In this document: in pieces, positions 1 through 14,424 of the stretch
Position numbering within the stretch: the first letter of the stretch is position 1
How the letters are laid out: every line of letters starts with the position of its first letter
Origin: a bacterium
GTDB lineage: Bacteria > Eisenbacteria > RBG-16-71-46
NCBI GenBank assembly: GCA_043779265.1
Contig: JAYWEM010000018.1
Coordinates: 1 to 14,424 of the forward strand
Length of the DNA stretch: 14,424 nt
Direction: 5' to 3'
Made by a program: the position numbers and the translations under genes
The notes under the pieces: model-generated
Told to the model about the DNA's origin: nothing
Databases searched by the model: none
The model's input: the letters and a program-made list of their open reading frames with translations, nothing else

Positions 1-19
1 TGACCTCGTAGCGTCGCAT
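1..19 (-). CDS. First codons (MRRYEV) of putative IS5-family transposase, partial
   Basis: ATG CGA CGC TAC GAG GTC on the minus strand, preceded by GGGGGA. Only 6 codons are visible. Confidence 0.55.
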
Positions 20-97
20 CCGTTCGGTCCCCCCAACCCCGCCATCCTTGGCGAGTTGGCAGCATCGTACGGCTTGCGACTGTTCTCAGACAGAGCC
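1..97 (-). mobile_element. Left end of an IS5-family-like insertion sequence (runs off the window)
   Basis: Minus strand from 97 reads GGCTCTGTCTGAGAACAG, resembling IS5-family terminal inverted repeats, flanked by TAA (98-100). Inside is a G-rich RBS and ATG at 19 giving MRRYEV..., like the MRRYELTDxQW start of IS5 transposases. The boundary coincides with the truncation of the neighbouring gene. Confidence 0.65.
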
Positions 98-100
98 TAA

Positions 101-328
101 TGCCCGGATTGTCGCGGGGTGTGGCTCGATCGCGGAGAGCTCGACAAGATCATCGAACGCACGGCGCCGGAGGGCGTGGCCAACGCGAGCCCGAGGCCAC
201 CTCAGCGTGATCACGATGCGAATGATCGACGTGACGGCGAATTCCGCGACGACGACGACGACCGCTACCGCCATGGGAAGAAGAAGAAGAAGGGCGGATT
301 CCTGGGCGAGATCTTCGACTTCGACTGG
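101..328 (+). pseudogene. 5'-truncated zinc-ribbon (zf-TFIIB-like) small protein
   Basis: Reads CPDCRGVWLDRGELDKIIER...DDDDRYRHGKKKKKGGFLGEIFDFD, the typical C-terminal two-thirds of this family. The first CxxC and start codon are missing and an in-frame TAA lies at 98-100. TGG stands at 326-328 where the family usually stops, so the frame runs on to 457. Confidence 0.75.
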
Positions 329-386
329 AACCGCTCGGGCCGAGCGCTCCGGCGTCAGCCCGCGAGGATACTCCGATTGACACGCA

Positions 387-433
387 AGGCCCCCTGGGTC
401 GCGTCCCGCGCGACTCAGGGGGCCTCTCGTTTC
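387..433. terminator. Intrinsic terminator-like hairpin between convergent units
   Basis: 17-bp stem AGGCCCCCTGGGTCGCG (387-403) / CGCGACTCAGGGGGCCT (409-425) with one G-U pair and a 5-nt loop. Followed by CTCGTTT on + and TGCGTGT on -. Confidence 0.75.
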
Positions 434-502
434 CCGGTCCTTGCAGTCCTCGAGTGACGGCGTTCCCTGCCGCCACGGCGGAGACTCACGCGTAGCCCGG
501 GG

Positions 503-559
503 TCAGCGCCGGATCCACCACAGGAGATCCAGCAGGACCATCACTAAACCGACGTCCAC
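503..559 (-). CDS. Candidate 18-aa hydrophobic peptide MDVGLVMVLLDLLWWIRR
   Basis: GGGAGG (570-565) lies 5 nt before GTG at 559, with TGA at 505-503. Hydrophobic core followed by WW and a basic C-terminus. Too short for the ORF track. Confidence 0.5.
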   Translation of the reverse strand: MDVGLVMVLLDLLWWIRR

Positions 560-670
560 GGATTCCTCCCTATTGAGAGGGGCCCGCTTCGGCAGCGCGG
601 GGTCAACCGGACGGATTGTCGGCCGCCCGTGGGTTGGCTGCGCGGGCGGGGAAGCCGGCATGTTGTCGGC

Positions 671-3139
671 TCACCCCTTCATCTCGGCAGGTGGGGCCGC
701 GGACTTGAGTGCTGCATGACCTCCCGTGCGGAACGCGGGTCGTGACAACTGTTTGAGGACCACGACCGTGAGGTCGTCGAGCGGCTCGTCGGCATGCGCG
801 CGCACCGCCCGGAGCAGCGCCTCCAGGATGTCCCCGGCCCTGCGATGCCCGTGCCTGGCGAGCACGGCGCCGATCCCCTCGGTGCCGAACTGCTCGCCCT
901 CGCGCATCGCCTCGGTGAGTCCATCGGTGTAGAGCAGCACCACGTCGCCCGCCGCGAGTTCGAGGGTCGACGTCTCATAGCTGGCATCAGGCGAGACCCC
1001 GAGCAGGATCCCGCTCTCGGCGTGCTCCTCCAGTGTGCGGGCGGCGCGCCACACGATCGGCGGCGTCAGGCCGCCGTTGGCGAAACGCACGGTCGCGGTC
1101 GCGGCGTCGACTCGCGCGCACAGGAGTCCCATGAACTTGTCGGGCTGCTGAAGGGCGACGAGGTCGCGATTGAGTACTTCGAGCAGTTCGCCCGGATGGC
1201 GCGTGCGCGTGGCCTCATCGCGGAAGCGCGCCTGCACGCCGGCCATGACGAGCGCCGCCGCGACGCCGTGGCCCGCGGCATCGCCGACGGCGAGCACGAA
1301 CTCGCGTGGTCCGGTCTCGATCACATCGTAGTAGTCGCCACCGACCGCCTCGCTCGAGAGCGTCACGGCGGCGCAGTCGAGCGTCGGCAGCACGGGCAGT
1401 CGGCGCGGCAGACGATGCATCTGCACCACGTGCGCCTCGGCCAGTTCACGCTCGAAGGTTCCTCGATGCGTGCGCTCGCGGCGGAGTTCGATGTGCTCGA
1501 GTCCGACCGAGAGGCGATCGGCCAGCTGCCGCAGGTCGCGCACCTCGTGCACATCGATCCAGCCGCCGGTCAGCCGCCTCCCCAGGAGGATCACGGCCGC
1601 GTGAGGACCACCTGCCACCGGCACGAGCCAATGGACATTCGAACCTTCGAGCGCGTCGCGGTCCTCGTGCGCCAGATCGAGGTCGGCGAGCGCGATGGGG
1701 CCACTCGCGCGCTTCAGCGCATCGGCGAAGCCGGCCCCGAGCACCGGTGCTCGCCTCATTCCCGCGTGCGCCACCGCCTGTGTCGGGCCGAGCCGGAGCG
1801 CCGAGACCCCGTCGAGTCGCAGTGAAGTCATGATCGCCTCGCACGCCTCTTCCATCGCGAGTCGCGGATCGGCGCCGCGAGCGGCCTCGGGACTCGGCGC
1901 CCAGCCACTCAGGGCATGTTCGCCCGCGATCGGCACCATGCGCTCGCCGACCTGGCTGAGCCATGGCCGGGCGGGGCCCGCCAACGAGGCGACCAGCACG
2001 AGGAACGCGAGCGATGCCCCGGCGACTCCCTGACTCGCGCCGGGCAGCAGCGTCGGCGCCAGCGTCTCGCCCGCGATCGCGATGGCGAAGGCGAGTGCCC
2101 CTGCGATGGCGAGCGCCAACCCGGCCCGCAGCGCCACGCGGAAGTCGAAGACGCGGTGGACCGCGATCGCCCACGCGAACGAAGCGGGCATGAGCAGCGT
2201 GGCGACCACGGCCATGCGCTCGCCCGGCAACTGATCGTCGGTCGACAGGTTGCGAAGCGCGACCAGTACCGCGAACGGTGCGGCGCCGAGCAGCGTCCCG
2301 AGGAAGGCCACCCGCAGACGCCGCCTCGCATCGGCGCTCTTCGCACGCGCCAGGGCTCCCGCGAACAGCACGAGGCCGCCGAGGAAACCTGCGGCGAGCG
2401 TGAGTCCGGCCGCCGCGCTCAGCCACGGCCTCGCGACCAGCGCCAACTGCCCGGCACCGAACTCGTCCTCGAACAGCACGACGCCCCACGCGAGAAGCGA
2501 CAGTGCGCCCGCCGCATAGCAGGCTCGCACCCACACGCGAGCGCGTGGCCTGTCACCGGGCTCGGGGAACAGCGCGAAGAAATGCGAGAACAGCGCGGGG
2601 ATGAAGAGCTGGACGACGAGCAGCGAGAGTTGGTGCAGCGCTGCGGCAGCGCCGGTCAGCCGGGGCGGCGGCGCGAGCCATCCGGCGAAGCACAGGCTGA
2701 GCAGGAAGAACACGGCGGTCAGTCGGTCGCGACGCTCGCTCCACACCCAGCCACCCAGCAGGAGGAAGCCGCAGGCCACGGCGTACAGGAGGGACTTGAA
2801 GCGGCGTTCCTCGACCGGCAGCGGTTCGGGCGCGATCCAGACTTGCGAGCGCTCGGCCAGTCGCTCGCGCTCGAGCACCAGGGGCCGGCCAGGCGTGGCC
2901 ATGGCGAGCGGGCCCATCGAGAGCAGCCGGGTCCGCTCACCCGGGCGGTGCAGCAGGTCTCCGGGGCGCAGTCCGGCACGGGCCCCGGGGCTACCGGGCT
3001 CGATGGTGACGATTCGATCTCCCTGCAGCGTCAGGCCGGTCCAGCCGTGACGAGGCAGGCTCAGAGCCGAAAGCAGGAGTGCCGCCGTGGCGGGGACCAG
3101 AAGCCACGAGAGCGCTCGCATCTCACCGGGACGGCCCAT
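671..3139 (-). CDS. Membrane-bound PDZ + multi-TM + GAF-like + SpoIIE/RsbU-family PP2C serine phosphatase, 822 aa
   Basis: N-terminal hydrophobic segment, PDZ signature ([18 protein letters not shown]) and several TM helices. PP2C motifs [23 protein letters not shown] and DDLTVV are intact. SD GGAGGA precedes ATG 3139. Confidence 0.92.
681..708 (-). promoter_or_regulatory. sigma28 (FliA/SigD/WhiG)-type promoter inside the 3' end of the phosphatase gene
   Basis: TCAAGTCC-N12-GCCGAGAT (TCAA-N16-GCCGAGAT). Same -35 octamer and spacing as the csrA promoter. Confidence 0.65.
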
Positions 3140-3169
3140 CGATCCTCCTCCCGCAGGAGAACGAGCAGC

Positions 3170-3198
3170 AGACTGGCAGCCGACCGCGCGAGGGTCAA
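3170..3198 (-). promoter_or_regulatory. Possible sigma70 promoter for the phosphatase gene
   Basis: TTGACC (3198-3193), 17-nt spacer, TGc-CAGTCT (3175-3170). The -10 is imperfect. Confidence 0.4.
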
Positions 3199-3245
3199 GC
3201 CCCAGTCCCCTCTTGGCCTCCGGGCACGCCCCCGGCTATTCTCCG

Positions 3246-3273
3246 TCAAGTCCTCTCGTGCATTGGCCGATAT
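3246..3273 (+). promoter_or_regulatory. sigma28-type promoter of csrA-flgM
   Basis: TCAA-N16-GCCGATAT, a near-consensus SigD/FliA promoter, 65 nt upstream of csrA. Confidence 0.85.
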
Positions 3274-3281
3274 GCACATCA

Positions 3282-3327
3282 CATGGATGCGGTGCTGCAT
3301 GGCTACTCTTGCTTCAGGGAGCGGAGG
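3282..3327 (+). promoter_or_regulatory. Putative CsrA-binding sites in the csrA leader
   Basis: CATGGATG (3282-3289) matches CANGGAUG. CAGGGA (3315-3320) abuts the SD GGAGG (3323-3327). Confidence 0.55.
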
Positions 3328-3338
3328 TCAGACCCACG

Positions 3339-3566
3339 ATGCTGGTCCTGACAAGGAAGTTGGGCGAGAACATCCGGATCGGAGACTCGGTGAAGATCAC
3401 CGTGTTGGAAGTCCGTTCGGGCCAGGTCAAACTGGGCATCGACGCTCCACCGGACGTGAAGGTGCACCGCGAGGAGATCTACGCGCGCATCCAGGAGGAG
3501 AATCGGCGAAGTGCCGCGGGCGGCAAGCCCCCGTCACCGCCGGATGCCTCCGCGGGTAAGCGCTGA
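3339..3566 (+). CDS. csrA: Carbon storage regulator CsrA, 75 aa
   Basis: [48 protein letters not shown] is the canonical CsrA sequence. Start at ATG 3339 after GGAGG. Confidence 0.97.
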
Positions 3567-3609
3567 CCGCACGGAGGTGGCGAGCCACCACCGGCGATCG
3601 CGAGGAGAC

Positions 3610-3816
3610 ATGCCGAGCCCAAGTCGCCGGAGCAACTCGAAGGGGAACCCGGATGCGAGCGTACCCGAGGTGAAGCCCGTTTCCGCGCAGGCGAAGATCC
3701 TCAACCTGTCCAAGATCGACGCCGTCCGCCGTCGCATCGCGAACGGCTACTACGATCGGGACGAGGTGCGCGACCGTCTCGCCCATGCCGTGCTCGAGGA
3801 GCTGCGCGAGGACTGA
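3610..3816 (+). CDS. flgM: FlgM-like anti-sigma28 factor, 68 aa
   Basis: Disordered N-terminus, then KIDAVRRRIANGYY-x(6)-DRLAHAVL, matching the FlgM C-terminal pattern (KVxxxKxxIxxGxY...IAxxLL). SD GAGGAG. Lies downstream of a sigma28 promoter. Confidence 0.75.
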   Translation: MPSPSRRSNSKGNPDASVPEVKPVSAQAKILNLSKIDAVRRRIANGYYDRDEVRDRLAHAVLEELRED

Positions 3817-3894
3817 GTGGAATCGGCGGCTACCCGCCTTCCCCCCGGACGTGCATAATGCTCTCGACTCGCGATGGACCGCGAGGACAAGCCC

Positions 3895-5097
3895 ATGCCC
3901 ACACGCCCCGCGCGCCGAGAAGGCGCATCCCCGCTCGCTGAGCTGGTCGACGCGCTCATGGAGGACGCGGCGACGGCTGTCCTCATCGTGGCGTCCGATG
4001 GCTCGCTCATCCGCCACAATGACGCGGCCCCCCGACTGTTCGGACTCTCGACCGCTGCGATGTCGCGCGCGACCGGGAGTGATCTGCTGCGGACGGTGGT
4101 GGCGGGCGAGGACCTGTTGGGCGATGCGCAGCGCGCCGTCCGCACCGAACGCGAGGCCGTGCTGGCGACTGCCAAGGCGGGCGACATCCCGGTGCGGGTG
4201 CGCAGCCACCGGCTGGGCGACCCGCCGATCGTGCTCGTCACCATCGAGGACATGACCCAGACGAGACGGACGCAGCAGGACCTGCGTCGGCATGAGCGGC
4301 TCGCCACGCTGGGCCAACTCTCGGCGGGTGTGGCGCACGAGATCCGCAATCCGCTCGCGGGCATCGGCACCAGTGCCCAGGTGCTGCTCCGACGATTCGA
4401 GGCCGGCGACGAGCGCGCCCGCTTCGTGCAGGTGATCCTCGATGAGGTGGCGCGGCTCGACCGCATCGTCTCGAGCCTGTTGCAGTACGCGCGGCCGCGC
4501 ACACCCGAACTGCGCCCCTCCTTGCTCGCGGACTGCGTGCAGCGCGTCGTCGCGCTCTCAGCCGAGATGACCATCAAGGCCGAGGTGCAGGTCGAGGTGG
4601 TCGCGGCGCCCAAGCTGGCGCACCTGTGGATCGACCCCGATCTGGTCCAGCAGGTCCTGCTCAACACCACGCTGAATGCCGTGCAGGCGATGCCCGAAGG
4701 TGGGACCCTGCGGATCGAAGTGCGCAAGGTGCGTCACAAGCGACCGCCGCGCGGCCCCGGGAGGCGAGCCGAGGATCTCTCGGGCGAGCGAGCGCGCGAC
4801 GAATCGGGATGGATCGAGTACCAGCAGATCCGCATCAGCGACACCGGCGTCGGCATCCCCAAGGGGGTGCTCGCCAAACTGTTCGATCCCTTCTTCACGA
4901 CCAAGGCCACGGGCACCGGGCTCGGGCTCAGCATCTCGCAGACCATCATGCAGGAGCACGGCGGTTCGATCGCCGTGGACAGCCGTGAGGGACGCGGGAC
5001 CACGGTGCTCATCGACTTCCCATTGGAGAAACGCCATGGATCGAGGCGACAGCGTGACACGAGCGGGGACGGCGCAGAGTCTGCTCATCGTCGATGA
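3895..5097 (+). CDS. Cytoplasmic PAS-domain histidine kinase (NtrB/FlrB/FleS-like), about 400 aa
   Basis: PAS-like N-terminus, H box AHEIRNPL, N box NAVQAM, DTGVGI, FDPFFTTK and GTGLGL. Start at 3895 (SD GAGGA) or 3874. Confidence 0.93.
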   Translation: MPTRPARREGASPLAELVDALMEDAATAVLIVASDGSLIRHNDAAPRLFGLSTAAMSRATGSDLLRTVVAGEDLLGDAQRAVRTEREAVLATAKAGDIPVRVRSHRLGDPPIVLVTIEDMTQTRRTQQDLRRHERLATLGQLSAGVAHEIRNPLAGIGTSAQVLLRRFEAGDERARFVQVILDEVARLDRIVSSLLQYARPRTPELRPSLLADCVQRVVALSAEMTIKAEVQVEVVAAPKLAHLWIDPDLVQQVLLNTTLNAVQAMPEGGTLRIEVRKVRHKRPPRGPGRRAEDLSGERARDESGWIEYQQIRISDTGVGIPKGVLAKLFDPFFTTKATGTGLGLSISQTIMQEHGGSIAVDSREGRGTTVLIDFPLEKRHGSRRQRDTSGDGAESAHRR

Positions 5098-6460
5098 CGA
5101 GCGCACGCTGCGCTTCTCGATCGGCGAATGGGCACGCGATCAGGGCTTCACACCCATCGAGGCCTCCACGGGTCGCGAGGCGCTCGAGGCGATGCGCGAG
5201 CAGAGCGTCGATGCGGTGCTGCTCGACCTGCGCCTTGGCGACGAGGACGGCATCAAGCTGCTGAAGCACCTGCGGGAGATCGACCCGACCGTGCCGGTCG
5301 TGATGCTCACCGGCCACGGCACCGTCGAGCACGCGGTGCGCGCCATCAAGATGGGCGCCTATGACTTCATGCTGAAGCCGCCGGACCTCGATCACCTGGC
5401 GGTGGTCCTCGAGCGCGCCATCGAGCATGGGCGGTTGAAGCAGGAGGTCTCCCACCTGCGGCAGCGCACCGCCCAGTCCCAGACGATCATCGGTGCCAGC
5501 GCGAGCCTGGCGCGCGTGTTGCAGCGCCTGGAGCGCGCAGCGCAGGCGCCGACCGCCACCGTGCTGATCCACGGCGAAACGGGGGCGGGCAAGGAGTTGA
5601 TGGCGCGCTATCTGCATGACCACTCCGCGCGCGCCGAGGGCCCGTTCGTCGAGCTGAACTGCTCGGCGATCCCGGAGTCGCTGCTCGAGAGCGAGCTCTA
5701 CGGTCACGAACGCGGCGCTTTCACGGACGCCAAGCGATTCAAGAAGGGTCTGTTCGAAGTCGCGGACGGCGGGACGTTGTTCCTCGATGAGATCGGGGAG
5801 ATGGCGCCTGCGCTGCAGGCCAAGCTCCTGCGCGTGCTCGAGACGCGGACGTTCCGCCGCGTCGGTGGACATGCCGACATCACCGTCGATGTCCGCGTGG
5901 TGGCGGCGACCCACCGGAACCTGCCGAAGATGGTGAGCGATGGCGGCTTTCGTGAGGATCTCTACTTCCGTCTCAATGTCGTCCCGATCGAGGTGCCGCC
6001 CTTGCGCGAGCGTCTCGATGACATCCCGGTGCTCGCTGAGCACTTCGTGCAGAAGCTGGCACGTGAACTGGGCCGCCCCGCCGTCCGGCTGACGCCCCAG
6101 GTGGTGGCCGCGCTGCAGAAGCACCGCTGGCCCGGCAACGTGCGTGAGCTGCGCAATGTGCTCGAGCGCGTCGTGCTGCTCGAGGCCGACGATGAGATCC
6201 TCGTCGAGCACCTGCCGCCCGAGTGGCTCGTCGGCTCGGCGAGCCCGCGTGCGGCTGCGGCGGGGGTCAGCTTCACGGGGCAGGAGGTGCGTCCGCTCGA
6301 GGAGATCGAACGCCTGGCCATCGAGCATGCACTCAGGCTCTGCGGCGGGAACAAGACCCGCGCCTCCGAGAAACTCGGGATCTCCCGCCAGACCCTGAGA
6401 ACGAAGCTCAAGGATCTCAAGCTGAGTGACGATGCAGAGGGGGAGTCGGACGAGGGCTGA
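5036..6460 (+). CDS. sigma54-dependent response regulator (REC-AAA+-Fis HTH; NtrC/FlrC/FleR family), 474 aa
   Basis: IVDD and LLDLRL receiver, Walker [39 protein letters not shown] and a C-terminal HTH. ATG 5036 follows GGAG and overlaps the kinase end by 62 nt. Confidence 0.96.
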
Positions 6461-6702
6461 CGCTGGCAGAAGTCGCACCACCCGGACCCCCGGGCTGGTG
6501 CAGGACTGAGCGGCCGGGCGCCTCGCGCCCGGCCGTCGGTGTGTCCGGGCAGCCCCCCCCTGAGGCGGCGCCCGAGGCCCGGGGCGATTGCCACGATGAC
6601 CGCCAAGTGATGATTCCCGAGTGACCTAACGCGCCAGACGCTTCGATTCGGAGCCGGTGGGCGGGTCCTCGAAGGCCCCCTCGACAGGGGCGGGTTCTGC
6701 CG

Positions 6703-6718
6703 TGGCATGCGGACTGCA
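6703..6718 (+). promoter_or_regulatory. sigma54 (-24/-12) promoter
   Basis: TGGCATGCGGACTGCA = GG-N10-GC with near-consensus flanks. It sits 19 nt before ATG 6738, at the end of a ~280-nt intergenic region with room for enhancer sites. Confidence 0.75.
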
Positions 6719-6737
6719 AGACAAGCAGGACGAACGC

Positions 6738-7172
6738 ATGACGCCGTCCTCCCCAGAGCCACCGGAGCCCACACCGATGCCGCATCTCCTGATCGTGGAA
6801 GACGAGGCGAGCACCTCGTGGGCACTGGCCGAGGGCCTCTCGGATGACGGCTATACGATCGACACCTTCCGCACCGCCGAGGAAGCGCAGCGCTGGCTGC
6901 GCCGCGGCACGAGCGACCTGATCATCTCCGACCTGCGGCTGCCCGGGATCTCGGGCCTCGAGTTCGCGCAGAAGCTCTCGCGCGGTCGTCACGCCCAGCC
7001 GGTCATCCTCGTCTCGGCCTACTCGCTCGATGGCCAGAGCGAGGAGCTGAACGCAGCCGGCATCGTGGATGTGTTCTCGAAGCCCTTCCAGATCGACGCG
7101 CTCCGCCGCTCGGTGCGCCGCGCGCTGCTCACCGCGACGCCGCGCCGGGTCCCGGCACGGAGGGCCGCGTGA
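6738..7172 (+). CDS. Single-domain response regulator (CheY-like receiver), 144 aa
   Basis: LLIVED, ISDLRLPGISG, VSAY and FSKPF all intact. ATG 6738 follows AGGA (alternative ATG at 6777). Confidence 0.92.
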   Translation: MTPSSPEPPEPTPMPHLLIVEDEASTSWALAEGLSDDGYTIDTFRTAEEAQRWLRRGTSDLIISDLRLPGISGLEFAQKLSRGRHAQPVILVSAYSLDGQSEELNAAGIVDVFSKPFQIDALRRSVRRALLTATPRRVPARRAA

Positions 7173-7408
7173 ACCGCCGTCTGCCGGATGCCGTTCGCGC
7201 ACTCCCCGAGGCGGTGCGTGCCTCGGCCGCGATCGAGACGCTGACGCCGCGCGAGCGCTCGGTCCTGGCACTCATGCTGATCGAGGGTCTCTCCCCGGTC
7301 GAAGTCGCCGGCGCGCTCGGTACGTCCGCCCGTCAGATCGAGCGTCTCTACAGCGCGGCGCTCGGTTCGGTCTCACGTGAGATGCACGGCGTCCGGAGGG
7401 CGGCATGA
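7169..7408 (+). CDS. Stand-alone sigma70 region-4 (HTH) protein, 79 aa
   Basis: IETLTPRERSVLALMLIEGLSPVEVAGALGTS aligns by eye with the FliA region 4 in this window (IDQLPEQERLVVALYYYEHMTLKEIGRTLGIS). GGAGG SD and GTGA coupling. Confidence 0.8.
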   Translation: MNRRLPDAVRALPEAVRASAAIETLTPRERSVLALMLIEGLSPVEVAGALGTSARQIERLYSAALGSVSREMHGVRRAA

Positions 7409-7638
7409 GCTGGAGCGCCCCGATGACGCCCGCGGCGGATGTCCGTCGTCCGATGCCCGGAACGCTCCAGGAGCGTCTCGCCGCGGCGGATCGTGCGGTC
7501 GCCTCGCTCGTCATCGAGCAGCAGCTGGCCGAGGCCCTGCACGCCGAGGTGCCGCAGGCACGCTGCCACCACCAGCTCCGCTACTGGCGCTTCGTCCGCA
7601 ACGTCCTGGCCGCGAGCAGCGGGGAGGTGCGGGCGTGA
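7405..7638 (+). CDS. Hypothetical helical protein, 77 aa
   Basis: ATGA overlap upstream, GTGA overlap downstream, GGAGG SD, high-GC3 codon usage. No family recognised. Confidence 0.7.
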   Translation: MSWSAPMTPAADVRRPMPGTLQERLAAADRAVASLVIEQQLAEALHAEVPQARCHHQLRYWRFVRNVLAASSGEVRA

Positions 7639-8531
7639 ATCCGTCCGAGCCGAACATGCGCGTGGTCGCCGGTGGTGAGGGCGAGGCCGTGCTCGGCGCT
7701 GGTCATGCCGCCGAGATGAGCCGTCCGCGCACGCGCACCATCGTCATCGCGAGTGGCAAGGGCGAGGTGGGCAAGTCGAACCTCTGCGCGAATCTGGCGC
7801 TGGCGCTGGCCGAGCGTGGCGCTCGCGTCCTGCTCGTCGATGGCGATCTGGCGCAGGCGAACCTCGACCTGATCCTCGGCGTGCATCCGCGCTGGGACAT
7901 CTCGGATGTCCTGAAGAACGAGCGCACGCTCGACGAGGTGCTGGTCTCGGTCGCGCGCGGCGTGCAGTTGGTGCCGGCCGCCTCGGGCGCCCCGGAACTG
8001 GCCGAACTCGACGACATGCGTCGCGAGACGTTCCTGCGCACGATCGGCTCAGTCGATCCGGCGCCGGATCTGGTGCTCATCGACACGGCCTCGGGTGCTT
8101 CGCGTCAGACCACGGCGCTGTGCCGCGCCGGGCACGAGACGATCGTCGTGACGACGCCCGAGATGCCCGCCTTCTCGGAGGCCTACGCCCTGGTCAAGCT
8201 GCTGCATCAGCAGGGCCTGGCGCAGGCCCCGCGCGTCGTCGTCAGCATGGCCAACTCCGACGAGGAGGCCCAGGAGACGTCGCACCATCTTCGTCTGGTC
8301 GCGCGCCGGTTCCTCCGCATCGAGCTCGAGTGCCTGGGGGTCATCCCGTATGACGCCTCGGTGCCGCGTGCGATGCGGCAGCAGGAGCCCGTGCTGAGCG
8401 CGTTCCCCGATTCTGCCGCGGCACGTGCGTATCGCGCACTGGCCGCGCGTTGCTGGAAGGGCCCGTCGTCGGGGCCGCAGGAAGCTGTCGCCACGAAGTC
8501 CGAGATGAAGCCCCAACGTCTCGTCGCCTAG
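7635..8531 (+). CDS. flhG: FlhG/FleN-like MinD/ParA ATPase, 298 aa
   Basis: IASGKGEVGKSN, VLLVDGDLAQANLDLILG, LVPAASG, VLIDTASG and VVTTPE. Directly upstream of fliA. GTG 7635 follows GGAGG. Confidence 0.85.
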   Translation: MNPSEPNMRVVAGGEGEAVLGAGHAAEMSRPRTRTIVIASGKGEVGKSNLCANLALALAERGARVLLVDGDLAQANLDLILGVHPRWDISDVLKNERTLDEVLVSVARGVQLVPAASGAPELAELDDMRRETFLRTIGSVDPAPDLVLIDTASGASRQTTALCRAGHETIVVTTPEMPAFSEAYALVKLLHQQGLAQAPRVVVSMANSDEEAQETSHHLRLVARRFLRIELECLGVIPYDASVPRAMRQQEPVLSAFPDSAAARAYRALAARCWKGPSSGPQEAVATKSEMKPQRLVA

Positions 8532-8542
8532 GAGGTCACCCC

Positions 8543-9415
8543 ATGCCCCGTGCCGCTTCGCTCCCCGCCCGTCGCACCGCCAGCAAGACCGCCGCGCCCG
8601 CCCGTCGTCCTGAACTGAAGGTCGTCGCGGGCCGCAAGCCCGCTGCGGCGCCGATCGCATCGGTCGCCGTCGCGGATGCACCGACCCCGGTGACGTACGA
8701 CAAGAACAACCTCCTCAAGCGATTCGCGCCGCTCGTGCGGCATGTCGTCGAGCGCGTCGCGGCGACCCTGCCGCGCAACGTCGATCATGAGGACCTCTAT
8801 TCGGCAGGTGTGCTCGGGCTGCTCGACGCGCATGCGAAGTTCGACACGGGTAAGGGCGTCAAGTTCGAGACCTACGCCGTGTGGCGCATCAAGGGTGCCG
8901 TTCTGGACCAGCTGCGGGCGCTCGACTGGGCTTCGCGTTCGATGCGTCGCAAGGCGCGCAACCTCGACGGTGTGACGCGCAAGCTCGATCAGAAGCTGGG
9001 ACGGGCCGCTTCCGAGGAGGAGGTCGCGCGCGAGCTGAAGATGTCGCGCGAGGACTTCTATCGTCTACTGGATCATGTGCGCGGCGCGGTGCTCGTCTCG
9101 CTCGACGAGTCGCGCACGCAGGACGGCGACGACCAGGGTTCGCTCTCGGATCATCTGGCCGACCCGAGCGCCCCGGATCTGGAGGAGCGCCTCGAGACCG
9201 AGCAGGAGCGCCATCTGATGATGGGTGTCATCGACCAGCTGCCCGAGCAGGAGCGGCTCGTCGTCGCCCTCTACTACTACGAGCACATGACGCTCAAGGA
9301 GATCGGCCGCACGCTGGGGATCTCCGAGTCACGTGTCTCCCAGGTCCACACACGGGCCATGTCCCGCCTGCGCCTTCGCATGAACAAGGCGATGTCCCTG
9401 GATGAGGCCGCGTGA
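8543..9415 (+). CDS. fliA: RNA polymerase sigma factor FliA/WhiG family (sigma28), 290 aa
   Basis: EDLYSAGVLGLLDA, KFETYAVWRIKGAVLDQLRALDW and LKEIGRTLGISESRVSQVH. ATG 8543 follows AGGAGG. Confidence 0.95.
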   Translation: MPRAASLPARRTASKTAAPARRPELKVVAGRKPAAAPIASVAVADAPTPVTYDKNNLLKRFAPLVRHVVERVAATLPRNVDHEDLYSAGVLGLLDAHAKFDTGKGVKFETYAVWRIKGAVLDQLRALDWASRSMRRKARNLDGVTRKLDQKLGRAASEEEVARELKMSREDFYRLLDHVRGAVLVSLDESRTQDGDDQGSLSDHLADPSAPDLEERLETEQERHLMMGVIDQLPEQERLVVALYYYEHMTLKEIGRTLGISESRVSQVHTRAMSRLRLRMNKAMSLDEAA

Positions 9416-9807
9416 GCGAAACGCCGCCCTCGTCCTCCTCATCACCACCTTGGACGGTCCTGCACGCGAAGGTCTCCGAACTGACCGATCGATGCGCCGC
9501 TCGAGGTGAAGCCGTGGCGGTCGAGGAACTCCGAACACTGTTGGACGATTGGTGGATCACGCAGCAGGCCTGGGATCGACAGGCTGCCGAGACGCTCGAA
9601 GCGCATCACGACATCAACAATGCACTCGTGGGAGTGCGCGGCAACGCGCAACTCCTGATGAAGAACCCCGTCGCGCAGGCACCCGTGGTGCGCGATCGTC
9701 TGGAGGTCATGCTCCGTGAGTCCAGCCGGATCCAGGAAGCGGCAGGACGGCTCCGCACCCTCCGTGCGAGCCTCGGTGGCTCGGTTCCCCACAACCGCGC
9801 GGCCTGA
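9412..9807 (+). CDS. Stand-alone HisKA/DHp-like protein without ATP-binding domain, 131 aa
   Basis: HHDINNALVGVRGNAQLL...RDRLEVMLRESSRIQE is a DHp helical hairpin. GTGA-coupled to fliA. Confidence 0.8.
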   Translation: MSETPPSSSSSPPWTVLHAKVSELTDRCAARGEAVAVEELRTLLDDWWITQQAWDRQAAETLEAHHDINNALVGVRGNAQLLMKNPVAQAPVVRDRLEVMLRESSRIQEAAGRLRTLRASLGGSVPHNRAA

Positions 9808-10771
9808 GGGCGGGGCGCCCGAAGCGGCGCCCACACCTCGTGGCCGGCGTGCCGATGGGGGAAGCGGCACCGAATCGCCCGCGCGCACCGATCGCCGTGA
9901 GGCGGCAGGTTCGCTGTGGGCTGCGTGCGAGGCGCTGCTCAGCGCGTCGCACGACCGTGAGGCGCTCCCGCGTGCACTCGACCAGCTCATCGAGGCGTTC
10001 GGATGTGCCGGTGTGGCGTTGCACGCGGTGGGTGCGAGCGGACAGCTCGAGCCTTGGTGTGCACGCGGCGAGTGGCAGGAGGAGCCGGGCGATCTCCGGC
10101 CGTGCATGGGTGTTCCGCTGTTCCATGGCCGCGAGCGCGTCGGCGCCCTCGATCTGAGGGGGCATCGCCAGCAGCGCTGGAAGCCCGAGCAGCACTCGCT
10201 CGTCCGCACCGCGGCGGGGGCTCTCGGAGCGGCGATGTCCGCACGTCTCGAACTCGAGCGGCTACGCCGCCAGCCGGGTCGCGACAGCAAGACGGGTCTC
10301 GCGGATTCGACGTCGTTCCACGGCCGACTCCTCGAGGAGGTCGGGCGCGCCGAGCGCATGGGCACGCCCGTCGCGGTCGTGAGTCTCGATCTCGATCACT
10401 TCGAAGGTGTGAACTCGAAGTACGGCGCCGATACCGGGGACGCCGTGCTCGCCGAGTGTGCGCTCGTCCTCAAGGTGGCGCTGCGCGATGGTGACTTCCT
10501 GGCCCGGCTGTCGGGTGATGAGTTCGGCGTGATCCTGCCGGACTGCGACCTCGCCCCGGCTCGCCGGCTCGCCGAGCGTCTCCGGCACGCGATCGAGTCG
10601 CATCGGTTCGCGCGCGTCGGGAATCTGAGTTGTTCCGCGGGAGTGGCCGCCGCGCCACGTGATGGGCTGGATGCCACCGAATTGCTATCCGCGGCCGAGC
10701 AGGCACTGGGTCTCGCCAAGAAGGCGGGACGTCGGCGCACGGCAGCTGCAGGTCCGAAGCACACCCACTAG
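9716..10771 (+). CDS. GAF-like + GGDEF-domain protein, degenerate (SGDEF), I-site intact
   Basis: DSKTGL, DLDHF, RDGD-x5-SGDEF, SAGVA and AKKAGR. Start uncertain (GTG 9716 with GGAGG, or 9764/9776). Confidence 0.88.
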   Translation: MSPAGSRKRQDGSAPSVRASVARFPTTARPEGGAPEAAPTPRGRRADGGSGTESPARTDRREAAGSLWAACEALLSASHDREALPRALDQLIEAFGCAGVALHAVGASGQLEPWCARGEWQEEPGDLRPCMGVPLFHGRERVGALDLRGHRQQRWKPEQHSLVRTAAGALGAAMSARLELERLRRQPGRDSKTGLADSTSFHGRLLEEVGRAERMGTPVAVVSLDLDHFEGVNSKYGADTGDAVLAECALVLKVALRDGDFLARLSGDEFGVILPDCDLAPARRLAERLRHAIESHRFARVGNLSCSAGVAAAPRDGLDATELLSAAEQALGLAKKAGRRRTAAAGPKHTH

Positions 10772-10789
10772 TCCCAGCTCGAGGCTCCC

Positions 10790-12514
10790 TTGTCCGAACC
10801 CGCGCACCTGTCGTCGGATTCCCCCGCATTGACCCCGCAGCCGGCTCGCGTGCTCGTCGTCGAAGACGACGAGACGGTGGCGGACGTGCTGCGCGAGGCG
10901 CTTGCCGACGCGCGATTCTCGTTGGAGTTCGCCGTCGACGCCGAGTCGGCCGTGCGCTCGATCGACGAGCGTCCGCCGGATCTCGTGCTCACGGACATCA
11001 GCCTTCCCGGCCGCTCCGGCTTGGACGTGATGCGGCACGTGCGGGGTCGCGACCCCGAAGCCGCGGTCATCCTGATGACCGGCTACGCCACGACGCAGAA
11101 CGCGATCGACGCCCTTCGCGAGGGCGCGTGCGAGTTCATCACCAAGCCATTCGACGACATCGCCAAGCTCCCCGACATCCTCGAGAAGCATCTCGGGAAT
11201 CGCCGTCTGCGACTGCAGAACACCGCGCTCATGAGCGAACTGCGGGAGAAGAACACCGTCCTCGAGCACCACGAGCAGGAACTGCGCGAGCGCGTCGAGT
11301 TGGCCACAAGGCAGATGGCGACGCTCTATCGCGTCGCGATGGAGATCGGCACCGATCTCGGACTGGCGCCCAGGCTCGACCGGATCAACAAGGTCGCCAT
11401 GCAGCAGGCGGGTGCGAACGGTTCGGGCGTCTGGCTGTTGCACGAGGAGAGTGGCGAGTTCGCGCTCATCTCGCATGCCGGTGCCGAGCGCGCCGAAGGC
11501 GAGGAGGAGGCGCATCGATTCGCGTCCGGCGCCGGACCGCTGGGTGCCACGGTGCAGACTCGAACGCCCATGCGACACGCGACGTGCGAGTCGCTTCCCG
11601 GCCTGATCGTCCGGCGCGAGACCACGCTGATGGTCGTGCCGTTCGTCCAGGGCGATACCTGCTTCGGCGTGATCGCGGTGTGGGGGAAGCTCGGGGGGTT
11701 CACGGCCGACGACCAGGAGTTCCTCTCCCTGTTCGCCTCGCAGGCCGCGGTCCAGATCCGCAACTCGCAGTTGTTCGAGCACACCAAGAGCCTCGACCGT
11801 CTCAAGTCCGATTTCGTCGCCGTCGTCTCGCATGAGATCCGAACGCCGCTCACGTCGGTCAAGGGCGCGGTGGAACTGCTGTCCGACGATCGTTATTTCC
11901 AGAACAACGACCAGCAGGGCAAGCTCCTCACGATCGCGCATGCCAACGCCGAGCGCCTGCTCCTGCTCATCAACGACATCCTCGACTTCAGCAAGCTCGA
12001 GTCGGCCTCGCTGTTCATGACCATCGAGCGTCAGCGACTCGAACCCGTCGTCATGCAGGCGAGCCAGAATCTCCGCACGCTCATCGAGGAACGCCGCATC
12101 CGCGTCGACTTCGAACTGAGCGAGGAACTGCCGGATGTCCTACTGGATGCGCACCGCATCACGCAGGTCGTCACCAATCTGCTCTCCAACGCGATCAAGT
12201 TCTCGCCGAGTGATGGCGCGATCGAACTTCGGGTGCGTGAGGCGGATGGCATGGTCCGAGTCGAGGTGACCGATCGGGGCGAGGGCATCGCGCCGCGCGA
12301 CCTGCCCAAGCTGTTCCGCAAGTTCCAGCAGGTGGACTCCAGTTCGACTCGCAAGGTGGGTGGTACCGGTCTCGGACTCGTCATCAGCAAGGGCATCGTC
12401 GAGCAGCACGGCGGCACGATCGGAGTCGAGAGCGAGTTGGGTGAGGGCAGCACGTTCTGGTTCACGCTGCCGGTCGCCGAACGGACGGCGGGGGAGAGCG
12501 CACTGCGCGCTTGA
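10790..12514 (+). CDS. Hybrid histidine kinase REC-coiled coil-GAF-HisKA-HATPase, 574 aa
   Basis: VVEDD, LTDISLPG and ITKPF receiver, GAF (FTADDQEFLSLFASQAA), SHEIRTPL, NLLSNAIKF, DRGEGI and GGTGLGL. TTG start after GAGG. Confidence 0.94.
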   Translation: MSEPAHLSSDSPALTPQPARVLVVEDDETVADVLREALADARFSLEFAVDAESAVRSIDERPPDLVLTDISLPGRSGLDVMRHVRGRDPEAAVILMTGYATTQNAIDALREGACEFITKPFDDIAKLPDILEKHLGNRRLRLQNTALMSELREKNTVLEHHEQELRERVELATRQMATLYRVAMEIGTDLGLAPRLDRINKVAMQQAGANGSGVWLLHEESGEFALISHAGAERAEGEEEAHRFASGAGPLGATVQTRTPMRHATCESLPGLIVRRETTLMVVPFVQGDTCFGVIAVWGKLGGFTADDQEFLSLFASQAAVQIRNSQLFEHTKSLDRLKSDFVAVVSHEIRTPLTSVKGAVELLSDDRYFQNNDQQGKLLTIAHANAERLLLLINDILDFSKLESASLFMTIERQRLEPVVMQASQNLRTLIEERRIRVDFELSEELPDVLLDAHRITQVVTNLLSNAIKFSPSDGAIELRVREADGMVRVEVTDRGEGIAPRDLPKLFRKFQQVDSSSTRKVGGTGLGLVISKGIVEQHGGTIGVESELGEGSTFWFTLPVAERTAGESALRA

Positions 12515-12540
12515 CGCATCGCGGTGCGGTTCACTAGGTT
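12511..12540 (+). promoter_or_regulatory. sigma70-type promoter overlapping the kinase stop codon
   Basis: TTGACG (12511-12516), 18-nt spacer, TAGGTT (12535-12540). Confidence 0.55.
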
Positions 12541-12544
12541 GCAG

Positions 12545-12579
12545 GCGGCCTCTGATGGATCGGGGGCCGCTTCCTTCTT
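12545..12579 (+). terminator. Terminator-like hairpin with a GGA loop
   Basis: 11-bp stem GCGGCCTCTGA / TCGGGGGCCGC (two G-U pairs), loop TGGA, followed by TTCCTTCTT. Confidence 0.6.
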
Positions 12580-12623
12580 CCGCCGTGCGGACTCCTCGCT
12601 GCCCGGAAAGGTCCTCTCCGACG

Positions 12624-14402
12624 ATGCGCGCCATGGATGACGCCGCTTCGCAGTCCCGTGCTGTTCCCGATCGTTCCGCCCGGATCGCCCTGCTGCTCGT
12701 GGGAGCGTTGGCCGGTGCGATTCTCGCGATCGGGCTTGCGCCCCGCTCACTCGCACGTTTCGAAGTGCGTCTGCCGTGGGCCGGTGCATCGCTGACCGCA
12801 GCCGACTGGCCACGCGATCCGCTGCCTGGCGAAGAGGCGATCGTCCGAGTCGGTGCGAACGGCATGGAACTCGTCGTCCGCGCCCCCGAGGCCGCGATGG
12901 CCGAGGCGCTCGCACGGGAGATCTCCGCGCAGCAGGTCAGCGCGCTTCCTCTGTTGCGCGAGATCGAGGTCGAACTGCGCGCGGCGTGGCGCCTCTCGGT
13001 TCCACACGGGCCCTCGCTGCCGATGACGCGCGAGAGCGAGGTCGCGGCGCTGCTCCTGGGTGAGGCCGCGCTGCGCCGCGATCTCGCGCTGCAGTTGCCC
13101 GGTCCCTACGCGGCGGCCCCGGCCGAGCATCTCGCGGTCCCGAGCCTCGCCGTGCTCGAGCGTCAGCAGGAGCTCTCGCTGGCGATTCCCGCCGCCGATC
13201 CCGATCGCATCGAACAGTTGCTGATCACGGCCGCAGCCGATGAGTCCGACTGGCTCGCCGCCAGTGGCGTGGCCGGCAGCTCCGCGAGCGAGCGCGGCTC
13301 GGCGTGGCGTCGCTGGCAGCTGGCGCGAGCCGATTCGCTCAGCGTCATCGCCGAGCGATTGCTCGAGAGCGAGACGGCGTTGCAGCAGTCGCTCGCCGCG
13401 TGGGCGATGCCCGCTCAGCGCTCCGCGCTGGGCGAGACCCGTCGCTCGTCCTATCTCGCGCTCGCGCGTGCACAGGTGCCGCCCACGGTCCCCGGCGCCG
13501 GTCCGATCGCAGGCGTCTGGGCGATGGTGATCGGCATCGGCGCGCTGACCGGTGCCGCTGCGGCCAGCTTCGGCGGGTGGGTCGCGCGTCGCGGCCGCAA
13601 TCGTGGCGCAAAGGCATCGCCGACCGCGTTCCCCGGCCGTGATCCGGGAGCGACGGAAGCGTGGCTGCACGTCGTCACCGGACCCGATCGCACGTCGATC
13701 GCGCGCGCCGTCCTCGAACTCGCCTCACACACGCTGGCGAGGGGAGAGCGCGCCCTCATCATCGACGCGAGCACGCGCCTCGCCCTGCACGAACGGCTCG
13801 GCCGCGAGGCGCGCTGGGGCCTGATGGAGTGCCTGCACTGCGACATGCCGGTTCTGGGACTGGTGCAGTACGGTGGATGGCCGGGGCTCTATCTGCTCGC
13901 CCATGGCGAGACCAAGCGGGCCTCGGCGGGCTGGTCAGGGCTCGGCCGGCGGTTGGATGAAGCGAAGCCGCACTTCGGGCGGATCCTGTTCTGCGTCGAC
14001 CAGGCGGCGCCGCGCGAGCTGGGGGAGGCGCTGATGGGTCGGCCGCTGGAGGGCTGGTGGGCCGAGTCCGGGGAGCGCCTGCCGAGGCAGGCGGACGAGC
14101 TCCCGGGCCGACTCGGTATCGCATTCTCCTGCATCGACATGCGCCACTTCCCGGAGGTCACGCTCGAACGGCTCGGGGAGCGCGCCGCAGCGCTGGCGCC
14201 GAGCATCCAGGTCGAACCGGCACCAGTCGTGACCCCGGCGCCGATTCCTCCGGCCGAGGTGGCCGTGGAGATCCCGGTGATCCCGGAGGGTCCGGTCGTG
14301 TTGGACTGCGACTTGCAAGTCCAGCAGCGACTGCGGTTCCTGGCGTGGATGCGCCGGGTCCAGTCCGAGAGCCGCCGCGAGGAACTCGAACCGGTCGCCT
14401 GA
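12624..14402 (+). CDS. Wzc/GumC-like membrane protein with degenerate P-loop (BY-kinase/MinD-like) C-terminal domain, about 590 aa
   Basis: Two TM segments flank a long helical region. Then LHVVTGPDRTS, LASHTLARGERALIIDAS, GLMECL, PGLYLLAHG and HFGRILFCVD follow the CpsD/Wzc motif order without catalytic residues. Start at 12624 or 12633. Confidence 0.65.
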   Translation: MRAMDDAASQSRAVPDRSARIALLLVGALAGAILAIGLAPRSLARFEVRLPWAGASLTAADWPRDPLPGEEAIVRVGANGMELVVRAPEAAMAEALAREISAQQVSALPLLREIEVELRAAWRLSVPHGPSLPMTRESEVAALLLGEAALRRDLALQLPGPYAAAPAEHLAVPSLAVLERQQELSLAIPAADPDRIEQLLITAAADESDWLAASGVAGSSASERGSAWRRWQLARADSLSVIAERLLESETALQQSLAAWAMPAQRSALGETRRSSYLALARAQVPPTVPGAGPIAGVWAMVIGIGALTGAAAASFGGWVARRGRNRGAKASPTAFPGRDPGATEAWLHVVTGPDRTSIARAVLELASHTLARGERALIIDASTRLALHERLGREARWGLMECLHCDMPVLGLVQYGGWPGLYLLAHGETKRASAGWSGLGRRLDEAKPHFGRILFCVDQAAPRELGEALMGRPLEGWWAESGERLPRQADELPGRLGIAFSCIDMRHFPEVTLERLGERAAALAPSIQVEPAPVVTPAPIPPAEVAVEIPVIPEGPVVLDCDLQVQQRLRFLAWMRRVQSESRREELEPVA

Positions 14403-14424
14403 CCGCGAGAGCCGAACCGCGGTC

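Follow-up and report, generated by a model that had tools for sequence, protein, structure and literature searches.

A conserved peptide gene under a sigma28-type promoter beside a PDZ-7TM-PP2C sensor gene in Eisenbacteria: a candidate peptide-receptor pair

Introduction

The window analysed here is the whole of a 14,424-nucleotide (nt) stretch of bacterial DNA (assembly GCA_043779265.1, contig JAYWEM010000018.1, positions 1 to 14,424 of the forward strand; phylum Eisenbacteria), and this work concerns a small gene on its minus strand, which follows a sigma28-type promoter and a structured leader and lies beside the gene of a large sensor phosphatase (Table 1). On the plus strand the window holds csrA, under a promoter of the same type, and the gene of a FliA/WhiG-family sigma factor. 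A preliminary description of this DNA had taken the region for a GGA-rich RNA that would titrate CsrA in the manner of CsrB and RsmZ. Based on the comparison with related genomes, we describe it here as a short messenger RNA encoding a peptide with a conserved C-terminal octapeptide, for which the neighbouring sensor is the candidate receptor.

Table 1. Features of the locus and of its surroundings (window positions; RBS, ribosome-binding site; ORF, open reading frame; TM, transmembrane; GPCR, G protein-coupled receptor; aa, amino acids).
Feature	Position	Strand	Remarks
sigma28 (FliA/WhiG)-type promoter, TCAAG-N15-GCCGAGAT	681..708	-	within the final codons of the phosphatase gene
Leader hairpin P1	652..672	-	two-sided changes in 7/8 pairs; loop GGA in 91/117 leaders, not in the window
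Leader hairpin P2 (649-623) and putative H-type pseudoknot	602..649	-	family-specific
Variable-length hairpin, then CCCTC/GGGAGG hairpin over the RBS (570-564)	560..601	-	
Small ORF, GTG start, 18 residues, MDVGLVMVLLDLLWWIRR-stop, conserved C-terminal octapeptide	503..559	-	RBS 570-564
3' tail with GGA loops and GC-rich terminal hairpin (about 427-385)	380..502	-	genus-specific
Putative receptor, 822 aa: TM1, PDZ, GPCR-like 7TM, GAF-like, RsbU/SpoIIE-type PP2C	671..3139	-	
Second sigma28-type promoter (3246) and csrA (3339-3566)	3246..3566	+	
FliA/WhiG-family sigma factor	8543..9415	+	TIGR02479 above cut-off

Results

A conserved peptide gene

The preliminary description had seen no long gene in the region, which is nevertheless not free of genes: an RBS-preceded and previously unannotated ORF of 18 codons occupies 559-503 and ends in DLLWWIRR-stop. 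A DNA search of 61 related genomes for the element returned matches in 32 of the 36 genomes of the same family, and 30 loci (L001-L030) were compared. Among them conservation runs from the promoter through a leader of about 115 nt to the stop codon of the short ORF. The RBS, the start and the frame are kept in all 30 loci, and the stop directly follows the motif in 28 (one of the others extends by one codon and the last is truncated by a contig end). Pairwise comparison of the last eight codons counts 1359 synonymous versus 115 non-synonymous differences, and on such patterns the ORF almost certainly encodes a peptide. In the natural set (150 distinct peptides of 15-51 aa) the N-terminal part is variable and mostly hydrophobic, and the octapeptide D-[LI]-[LF]-W-W-[IL]-[RK]-R is conserved, either of its tryptophans being replaceable by Phe or Tyr among relatives.

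No NCBIfam model matched the peptide (17 of 74 members were of sufficient length), and no Pfam model was found for six longer variants (the L333 entry being searched minus its first 8 residues). Neither the motif nor its pairing with a sensor is described in the literature searched, which left subscription papers and supplements outside its coverage. In the window's own genome (G000) no second copy of the RNA or of the peptide was found; second leader copies were seen elsewhere, at G152:C153:68928-69002 and G139:C304:1907-1982.

The tandem Trp codons and the position of the motif right before the stop bring to mind a tryptophan-sensing leader or a ribosome-arrest peptide, the more so as the neighbouring gene in G015 is trpA, as it is, by eye, in many family members. 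However, trpA is convergent in G015 rather than downstream, and in the window a zf-TFIIB pseudogene replaces it as the convergent neighbour. No conserved downstream gene or attenuator is present, the other families have bacA or other genes as neighbours, and the tolerance of Phe or Tyr in place of Trp speaks against the same idea, which we regard as barely conceivable.

Promoter and leader

The whole window contains just two TCAAG-N15-GCCGAGAT sites, that at 708-681 (-) and a second one, at 3246 (+), ahead of csrA. That the former mirrors the csrA promoter had been noted in the preliminary description and is borne out. The site is kept in all 30 orthologous loci with varying spacer letters (spacer of 15 in 29 loci and of 14 in one). 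The coding tail of the phosphatase that overlaps the promoter is disordered in the predicted structure. We considered whether the site is conserved merely through the amino acids of the sensor tail, and rejected this: a sigma28-type site is retained where the phosphatase gene is divergent (L228, L229). On the comparative evidence the promoter is real and conserved, and it would drive a small mRNA, not a CsrB-like sponge. The FliA/WhiG-family sigma factor presumably reads both promoters of the window, a cognate pairing that we infer.

In the window's genome, sites of this kind are found ahead of csrA, of a flagellin-family gene and of several genes for signalling proteins, the last judged by eye: C179:1439 (-), C37:7613 (+) and C58:45664 (+) stand before genes resembling those of an MglA-type GTPase, an HD-GYP-type protein and a single-domain response regulator. 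In L057, L060 and L079 the sigma28-type site overlaps TGGCA-N-TGC, the spacing of which we take to be sigma54-like.

Concerning the leader, two-sided pair changes were found in seven of the eight pairs of P1 and four of the nine pairs of P2, exceeding all 500 shuffles and the slid controls in 78 aligned leaders (out of 117 distinct ones), 48 of these 78 having been chosen by the pseudoknot motif itself. The putative pseudoknot would form between the P2 loop GCCAACC (638-632) and GGTTGAC (608-602); its six pairs are invariant, so that covariation gives it no support. The Shine-Dalgarno (SD) sequence is predicted to be paired (>0.5) in all 30 loci, a figure obtained in GC-rich sequence and without a control. 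A covariance model of the leader found it in 72 of 88 same-family genomes and in none of 13 from the two other families of the order, and as judged from sequence the leader is a family-level control element.

Such an anatomy resembles that of the timP mRNA, the translation of which, according to the accessible part of the report, is governed by a pseudoknot and by sequestration of the RBS (PMC11228461). Together with the short hydrophobic product and the copies on mobile elements, it raises the idea of a timP/tisB-like type I toxin, a membrane peptide made from a pseudoknotted, RBS-covered leader. This we find hardly credible, given that a single copy is fixed beside one sensor across the phylum, that no sigma70-type antisense promoter was found in 1-1200 and no antitoxin was seen, and that a sequence-specific C-terminal motif is carried on free N-termini, cleavable ones included.

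GGA content and the role of CsrA

The preliminary description had counted ten minus-strand GGAs in 404-569 and placed some of them in hairpin loops. The hairpin with the AGGGA loop and the terminal one both fold as claimed (whole-region folding z = -2.55); the latter has no U-tract, and no terminator-like site was detected (0). The count is also correct and rare for an interval of 166 nt: the genome mean is 2.7, at least 10 are reached by 0.09% of 41,172 genome windows, and dinucleotide shuffles give p = 0.02, for an interval that was picked post hoc. Across the whole 301 nt (680-380), which contain the same ten, the count is ordinary: 3.9% of genome windows reach it, as do 28% of dinucleotide shuffles. 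Furthermore, the ORF accounts for five of the ten, namely those at 569 and 566 (RBS), 557 (start codon junction), 530 (Leu-Asp) and 516 (Trp-Ile junction).

The tail (499-380) is common only to one genome of the same genus (G002), where its looped GGAs are kept; beyond the genus these GGAs (466-406) are not kept. In the 125 nt past the stop, 114 orthologues have a mean of 2.4 GGAs versus 5 in the window. Rfam, which the preliminary description had suggested consulting, holds no Csr/Rsm family that matches here: searching the window at E<=5 gave only a chance snoRNA match elsewhere, and ten related loci gave tRNAs only. When the window's genome was scanned for stretches dense in A(N)GGA, most of those found were coding sequence, and the top 12 included no obvious CsrB-like RNA.

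What is conserved lies upstream of the ORF. CsrB-type loops follow a CAGGA(U/A/C)G-like consensus, and the P1 loop carries a GGA in 91 of the 117 leaders (CAGGA in 73) and the variable hairpin in 54, nine leaders having neither. The window is among these nine, unlike most relatives. The CAGGA loops conserved in relatives suggest that CsrA targets the mRNA; the protein is more likely to regulate the leader than to be its prey.

The proposal that the transcript titrates CsrA through its GGA loops, either as its sole role or in addition to being an mRNA, draws on these same loops, on the tail GGAs kept in G002, on the presence of csrA 2.7 kb away under the same promoter type and on FliW not being found in the window's genome. 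Against it, the leader GGAs are just 2-3 per RNA (with six A(N)GGA in the window RNA), the tail is not conserved, the leader is missing from other families that retain the peptide, and the peptide gene and its sensor neighbour are present in G050 and G052, in which no CsrA was found. A CsrB/RsmZ-type sponge is, moreover, non-coding and rich in conserved loop GGAs, whereas here the ORF is under purifying selection and one loop site is conserved, absent from the window. Titration is thus improbable: of the preliminary description, an independent minus-strand transcript under a sigma28-type promoter in the csrA/fliA cluster is supported by conservation, and its nature as a CsrA sponge is not.

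The sensor phosphatase

The N-terminal domain of the sensor contains a PDZ of the HtrA/DegS/RseP type (a sequence search of this domain against solved structures gave only PDZ domains among the best 60 matches), which keeps a G-Y/W-T-G-L-like loop. PDZ domains of this type bind peptide C-termini. Since it sits between TM1 and TM2, this PDZ is probably periplasmic. In a model of residues 1-340 (pLDDT 86), all 50 matches listed for the membrane domain were GPCRs or GPCR-like proteins (residues ~105-335, Z 11.7-14.6, root-mean-square deviation (rmsd) 4.1-7.1 Å, about 200-250 aligned residues), a resemblance to the GPCR-type fold that is suggestive only. Foldseek on the full sensor model gave only PP2C domains among the matches listed. 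The ESM Atlas holds nameless PDZ-membrane clusters from Acidobacteriota and Chloroflexota, one of them with HisKA_7TM in 12% of its members, and no match of the sensor to the ComP/AgrC family was found. RsbU acts through a STAS/anti-sigma partner switch, and five STAS proteins are encoded in the window's genome.

The peptide tracks the sensor across the phylum

A survey of 206 genomes of the phylum with a relaxed codon pattern followed by a stop (the reversed control gave 1 match) found the octapeptide-stop in 100. The N-terminal domain of the sensor is present in 140, with both genes in 95 genomes and the peptide alone in 5; 54 genomes of the families f10 (8), f13 (5) and f11 (41) have no peptide and a single weak sensor match. 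With a looser motif applied beside sensors, 19 of 26 sensor loci proved to have a peptide; of the seven without one, five run into a contig end. A further 20 sensor flanks gave 17 peptides, one of which rescues a miss of the first set, and the misses here were G054, G106 and one contig end. The peptide gene adjoins the sensor gene either in tandem or divergently. In G065, G067 and G068, the sensors of which are only 25-29% identical to that of the window, the two genes are divergent and still adjacent, and two of these three genomes show the same promoter type.

The pair occurs without detected CsrA (G050, G052) and together with FliW (G053, G055), and neither peptide nor sensor was found in G057, which has CsrA and a FliA-type match; hence, in these genomes, the peptide tracks the sensor rather than CsrA. 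The same genomes bear on the idea that the peptide acts in the cytoplasm as a substitute for FliW, binding CsrA or the sigma28/anti-sigma pair. The lack of a detected FliW in G000 would suit such a role, as would CsrA above cut-off in three of the four small genomes and three of the six phage contigs that carry the peptide. The coexistence with FliW, the absence from G057 and the existence of putatively exported forms make it highly improbable, and based on genomic linkage a functional coupling of the peptide to the sensor appears very probable.

In flagellated relatives the pair lies among flagellar genes, fliW, csrA and fliA, and the phylum is diderm (FlgH/FlgI in G055). Within the window's family flagellin (PF00669) is present in 10 of 36 genomes, CsrA in 34, a FliA-type factor in 35 and the element in 32. 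Most family members lack PF00669 and retain the csrA-fliA cluster of the window. The window's genome has, additionally, a separate flagellar cluster (G000:C1 about 51000-78400), where three PF00669 genes are found alongside another FliA (38% identical).

In family f3 (L251-L257, L264) the sensors are shorter (about 750-795 aa) with part of the middle region missing, and several of the peptides end in seven residues, DLFWWLR, after an N-terminal part that is acidic and not hydrophobic; a co-variation of ligand and receptor is a possible explanation of these joint changes.

Copies in phages and small genomes

Two scans of viral contigs gave 7 and 22 matches on 28 distinct contigs. Of these, 19 are true motif-stop ORFs, and 14 of the 19 also passed a strict filter for a strong SD and start. 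The codon-reversed controls returned 0 and 11 matches (2 distinct sequences, none with a stop plus SD and start). We dropped as chance matches the viral rows L097, L328, L329, L331, L332, L339, L341, L343 and L346 (Trp end, no stop) and the doubtful L345, as well as L037, L038, L043, L054, L081, L090 and G303. The viral peptides, with N-termini that vary freely, lie among typical phage genes such as those of recombinases, methylases, HNH proteins and a lysozyme; in the flanks examined the peptide stands alone, and the one complete phage searched for a sensor yielded none. Six viral or phage-like ORFs (L102, L137, L213, L333, L337, L344) join a Sec-type signal peptide and an A-x-A site to the motif, as called by eye and simple heuristics, and L188 is likely a seventh such fusion. 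In L333 the predicted cut falls directly before the motif, giving exactly DIFWWLRR, and in L344 before LDLFWWLRR. Other viral contigs have two tandem peptide ORFs (L338, 1501-1527 -) or the motif at the end of longer frames of 55 aa or more (L340, L330).

Near-copies of the family peptide were also found in four of 151 genomes of 0.6-1.6 Mb around Ca. Kerfeldbacteria, each with its own leader and a terminator-like hairpin with U-tract. We call these genomes Patescibacteria-type from their size and from their place among the 12 nearest listed relatives of one Ca. Kerfeldbacteria genome, three of the records being labelled uncultured Gammaproteobacteria. No full sensor was found in the four; proteins of ~940 aa in two small genomes (G061:C1:441397-442068, G062:C2:56343-56960) match weakly the 7TM part only. 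In two ~1-Mb genomes CsrA above the NCBIfam cut-off (L301:3652-4065, L302:3407-3763) adjoins uvrA near groES, and it looks native to the lineage. A common leader with a GTTGG/GCCAAC hairpin is found in L046, L051 and L070, an echo of the GCCAAC-GGTTG pairing of the host family, and two of these copies stand beside a tRNA gene. A phage-like contig of a host genome carries a second peptide (L088) identical to the small-genome peptide L051.

Surroundings of the locus

Positions 1-99 of the window match the beginning of contig C64 without a difference and resemble the end of an insertion sequence, which we take to be IS5-like. This end cuts the zf-TFIIB gene (PF13453; within 1-457) at 98-100, and the gene also reads through the stop position of its C10 paralogue. 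After csrA, a 66-aa ORF (3616-3816, +) resembles by eye the C-terminal half of FlgM, with no Pfam or NCBIfam support, and a 589-aa ORF without a Pfam or NCBIfam match (12633-14402, +) ends the fliA cluster.

Discussion

Proposed mechanism

Comparison of genomes establishes the promoter, the structured leader, the coding ORF, the sensor linkage and the capture by parasites. From them we consider it fairly probable that the locus is a peptide-receptor pair, in which a sigma28-induced peptide acts from the periplasmic side on the adjacent phosphatase, with feedback on the circuit and mimicry by parasites. In this mechanism, the sigma28 factor of the cluster would transcribe the short mRNA, as the conservation of the promoter suggests, and the leader fold would cover the RBS and gate translation, CsrA being the probable gatekeeper in most relatives. 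The variable hydrophobic N-terminal part may serve as an export or membrane-anchor leader, possibly followed by trimming. Because phages fuse the motif to signal peptides, the octapeptide would be presented outside the cytoplasmic membrane, and an action from this outer face is, on balance, probable. The gene linkage and the domain anatomy are the reasons for proposing that it binds the PDZ and 7TM parts of the adjacent protein and alters its PP2C activity. An RsbU-type phosphatase would work through a STAS/anti-sigma partner switch, most likely feeding back on the sigma28 regulon (motility and cyclic di-GMP genes). Phages and a few Patescibacteria-type cells would carry the peptide without the receptor in order to manipulate the host circuit.

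All of the linkage evidence is equally compatible with a cell-autonomous peptide that is never diffusible, namely an inner-membrane feedback subunit of the phosphatase comparable to MgrB for PhoQ. The mean hydropathy (+1.2) and the mostly hydrophobic chromosomal N-termini without a cleavage site would suit such a subunit, and phage genes can work inside an infected cell. However, the signal-peptide fusions would free an 8-17-mer, the N-termini of one genus are acidic and non-hydrophobic (L251, L253), and the peptide is found in separate small cells without the sensor, all of which makes a membrane subunit unlikely.

Several observations weigh against the peptide-receptor pair as proposed. The chromosomal peptides mostly start with M-D/E and have neither a basic n-region nor a clear cleavage site, and a C-terminal Arg-Arg suits a cytoplasmic end (positive-inside rule) and is an atypical end for a PDZ ligand. 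Across the phylum the motif shows little variation, unlike pheromones, which diversify into pherotypes. Around the sensors of G054 and G106, searches of 10 kb and 7.5 kb respectively gave no peptide, and five peptide-positive draft genomes have no detected sensor. The genomes compared are kin and not independent, their joint absences amounting to about three lineage events. Finally, Z values of ~12-14 at an rmsd of 4-5 Å are near the level that any helical bundle can give.

True cell-to-cell signalling by the peptide is a step further, which we regard, from the sequences at hand, as possible and somewhat doubtful. The widest form of the peptide-receptor proposal is equally tentative: a near-universal octapeptide pheromone of the phylum, sensed by a PDZ and GPCR-like 7TM-PP2C receptor and driving a sigma28 lifestyle switch which persisted after flagella had been lost, the ligand gene being captured by phages and Patescibacteria epibionts for spoofing. 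If so, each peptide variant would be a sequence tag naming the host lineage of uncultured parasites, and the retention of sigma28 and CsrA without flagellin in most of the family would be explained. Most of what is known of peptide signalling through membrane receptors comes from monoderm Firmicutes, which use histidine kinases or RRNPP proteins. In the candidate ligand-receptor pair described here, from a diderm, uncultured phylum, the receptor is built differently (PDZ, GPCR-like 7TM and PP2C), and a large class of orphan sensors gains a defined 8-residue candidate ligand. Many phages and a small clade of ~1-Mb Patescibacteria-type genomes have captured the peptide, which suggests that parasites mimic the signal and gives a prediction of their hosts.

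Comparison with known systems

With CsrB, CsrC, RsmY and RsmZ the locus has in common GGAs in hairpin loops and a nearby csrA, and it differs in being coding, with few sites and an unconserved tail. MgrB, a small membrane protein induced by its own regulon, gives feedback on the sensor PhoQ; the present peptide could likewise tune a sensor, but it is much shorter, has forms with cleavable signals and occurs as copies in phages and other cells. In ComX-ComP, AIP-AgrC and CSP-ComD a peptide gene adjoins that of a multi-TM receptor, which reads the peptide from outside. The same linkage to a multi-TM sensor is found here, with the difference that a PP2C phosphatase takes the place of the histidine kinase and response regulator as output; the three clusters annotated showed no gene for a maturation enzyme or an exporter next to that of the peptide.

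The 5' hairpins, the putative pseudoknot, the sequestered RBS and the short hydrophobic ORF recall timP and tisB, as far as the accessible parts of those reports describe them (PMC11228461, PMC7708055); the sigma28-type promoter, the strict sensor linkage and the lack of a visible antitoxin do not. Phage RRNPP systems, as outlined in the accessible part of one preprint (bioRxiv 10.1101/2021.07.15.452460), are a precedent for signalling peptides that can alter host development; they pair a propeptide with an intracellular receptor in phages of Firmicutes, whereas here the phages carry, in the flanks examined, the peptide alone. Phage-borne signalling peptides that act as lone ligands of a host membrane phosphatase are not known. 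On present evidence the locus is neither a Csr small RNA, nor a trp leader, nor a type I toxin.

In the ComS/XIP and SHP systems, from what the accessible part of the source gives (PMC5131902), a tiny ORF beside the receptor gene yields a C-terminal 7-8-mer with WW, which feeds back positively on its promoter and controls an alternative sigma factor. The present gene has the same construction, a tiny unannotated ORF by a receptor gene with a variable leader part and a conserved, WW-bearing C-terminus of 7-8 residues. In contrast, ComR and Rgg, of monoderm bacteria, are cytoplasmic HTH-TPR proteins, while the constant neighbour here is a membrane PDZ-7TM-GAF-PP2C protein of a diderm phylum, facing a peptide with a basic end (a TPR-only gene stands two genes away in L057, L060 and L079 only). 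The locus would work most like ComS/XIP or ComX-ComP and is a member of neither, its receptor being neither an RRNPP protein nor a histidine kinase.

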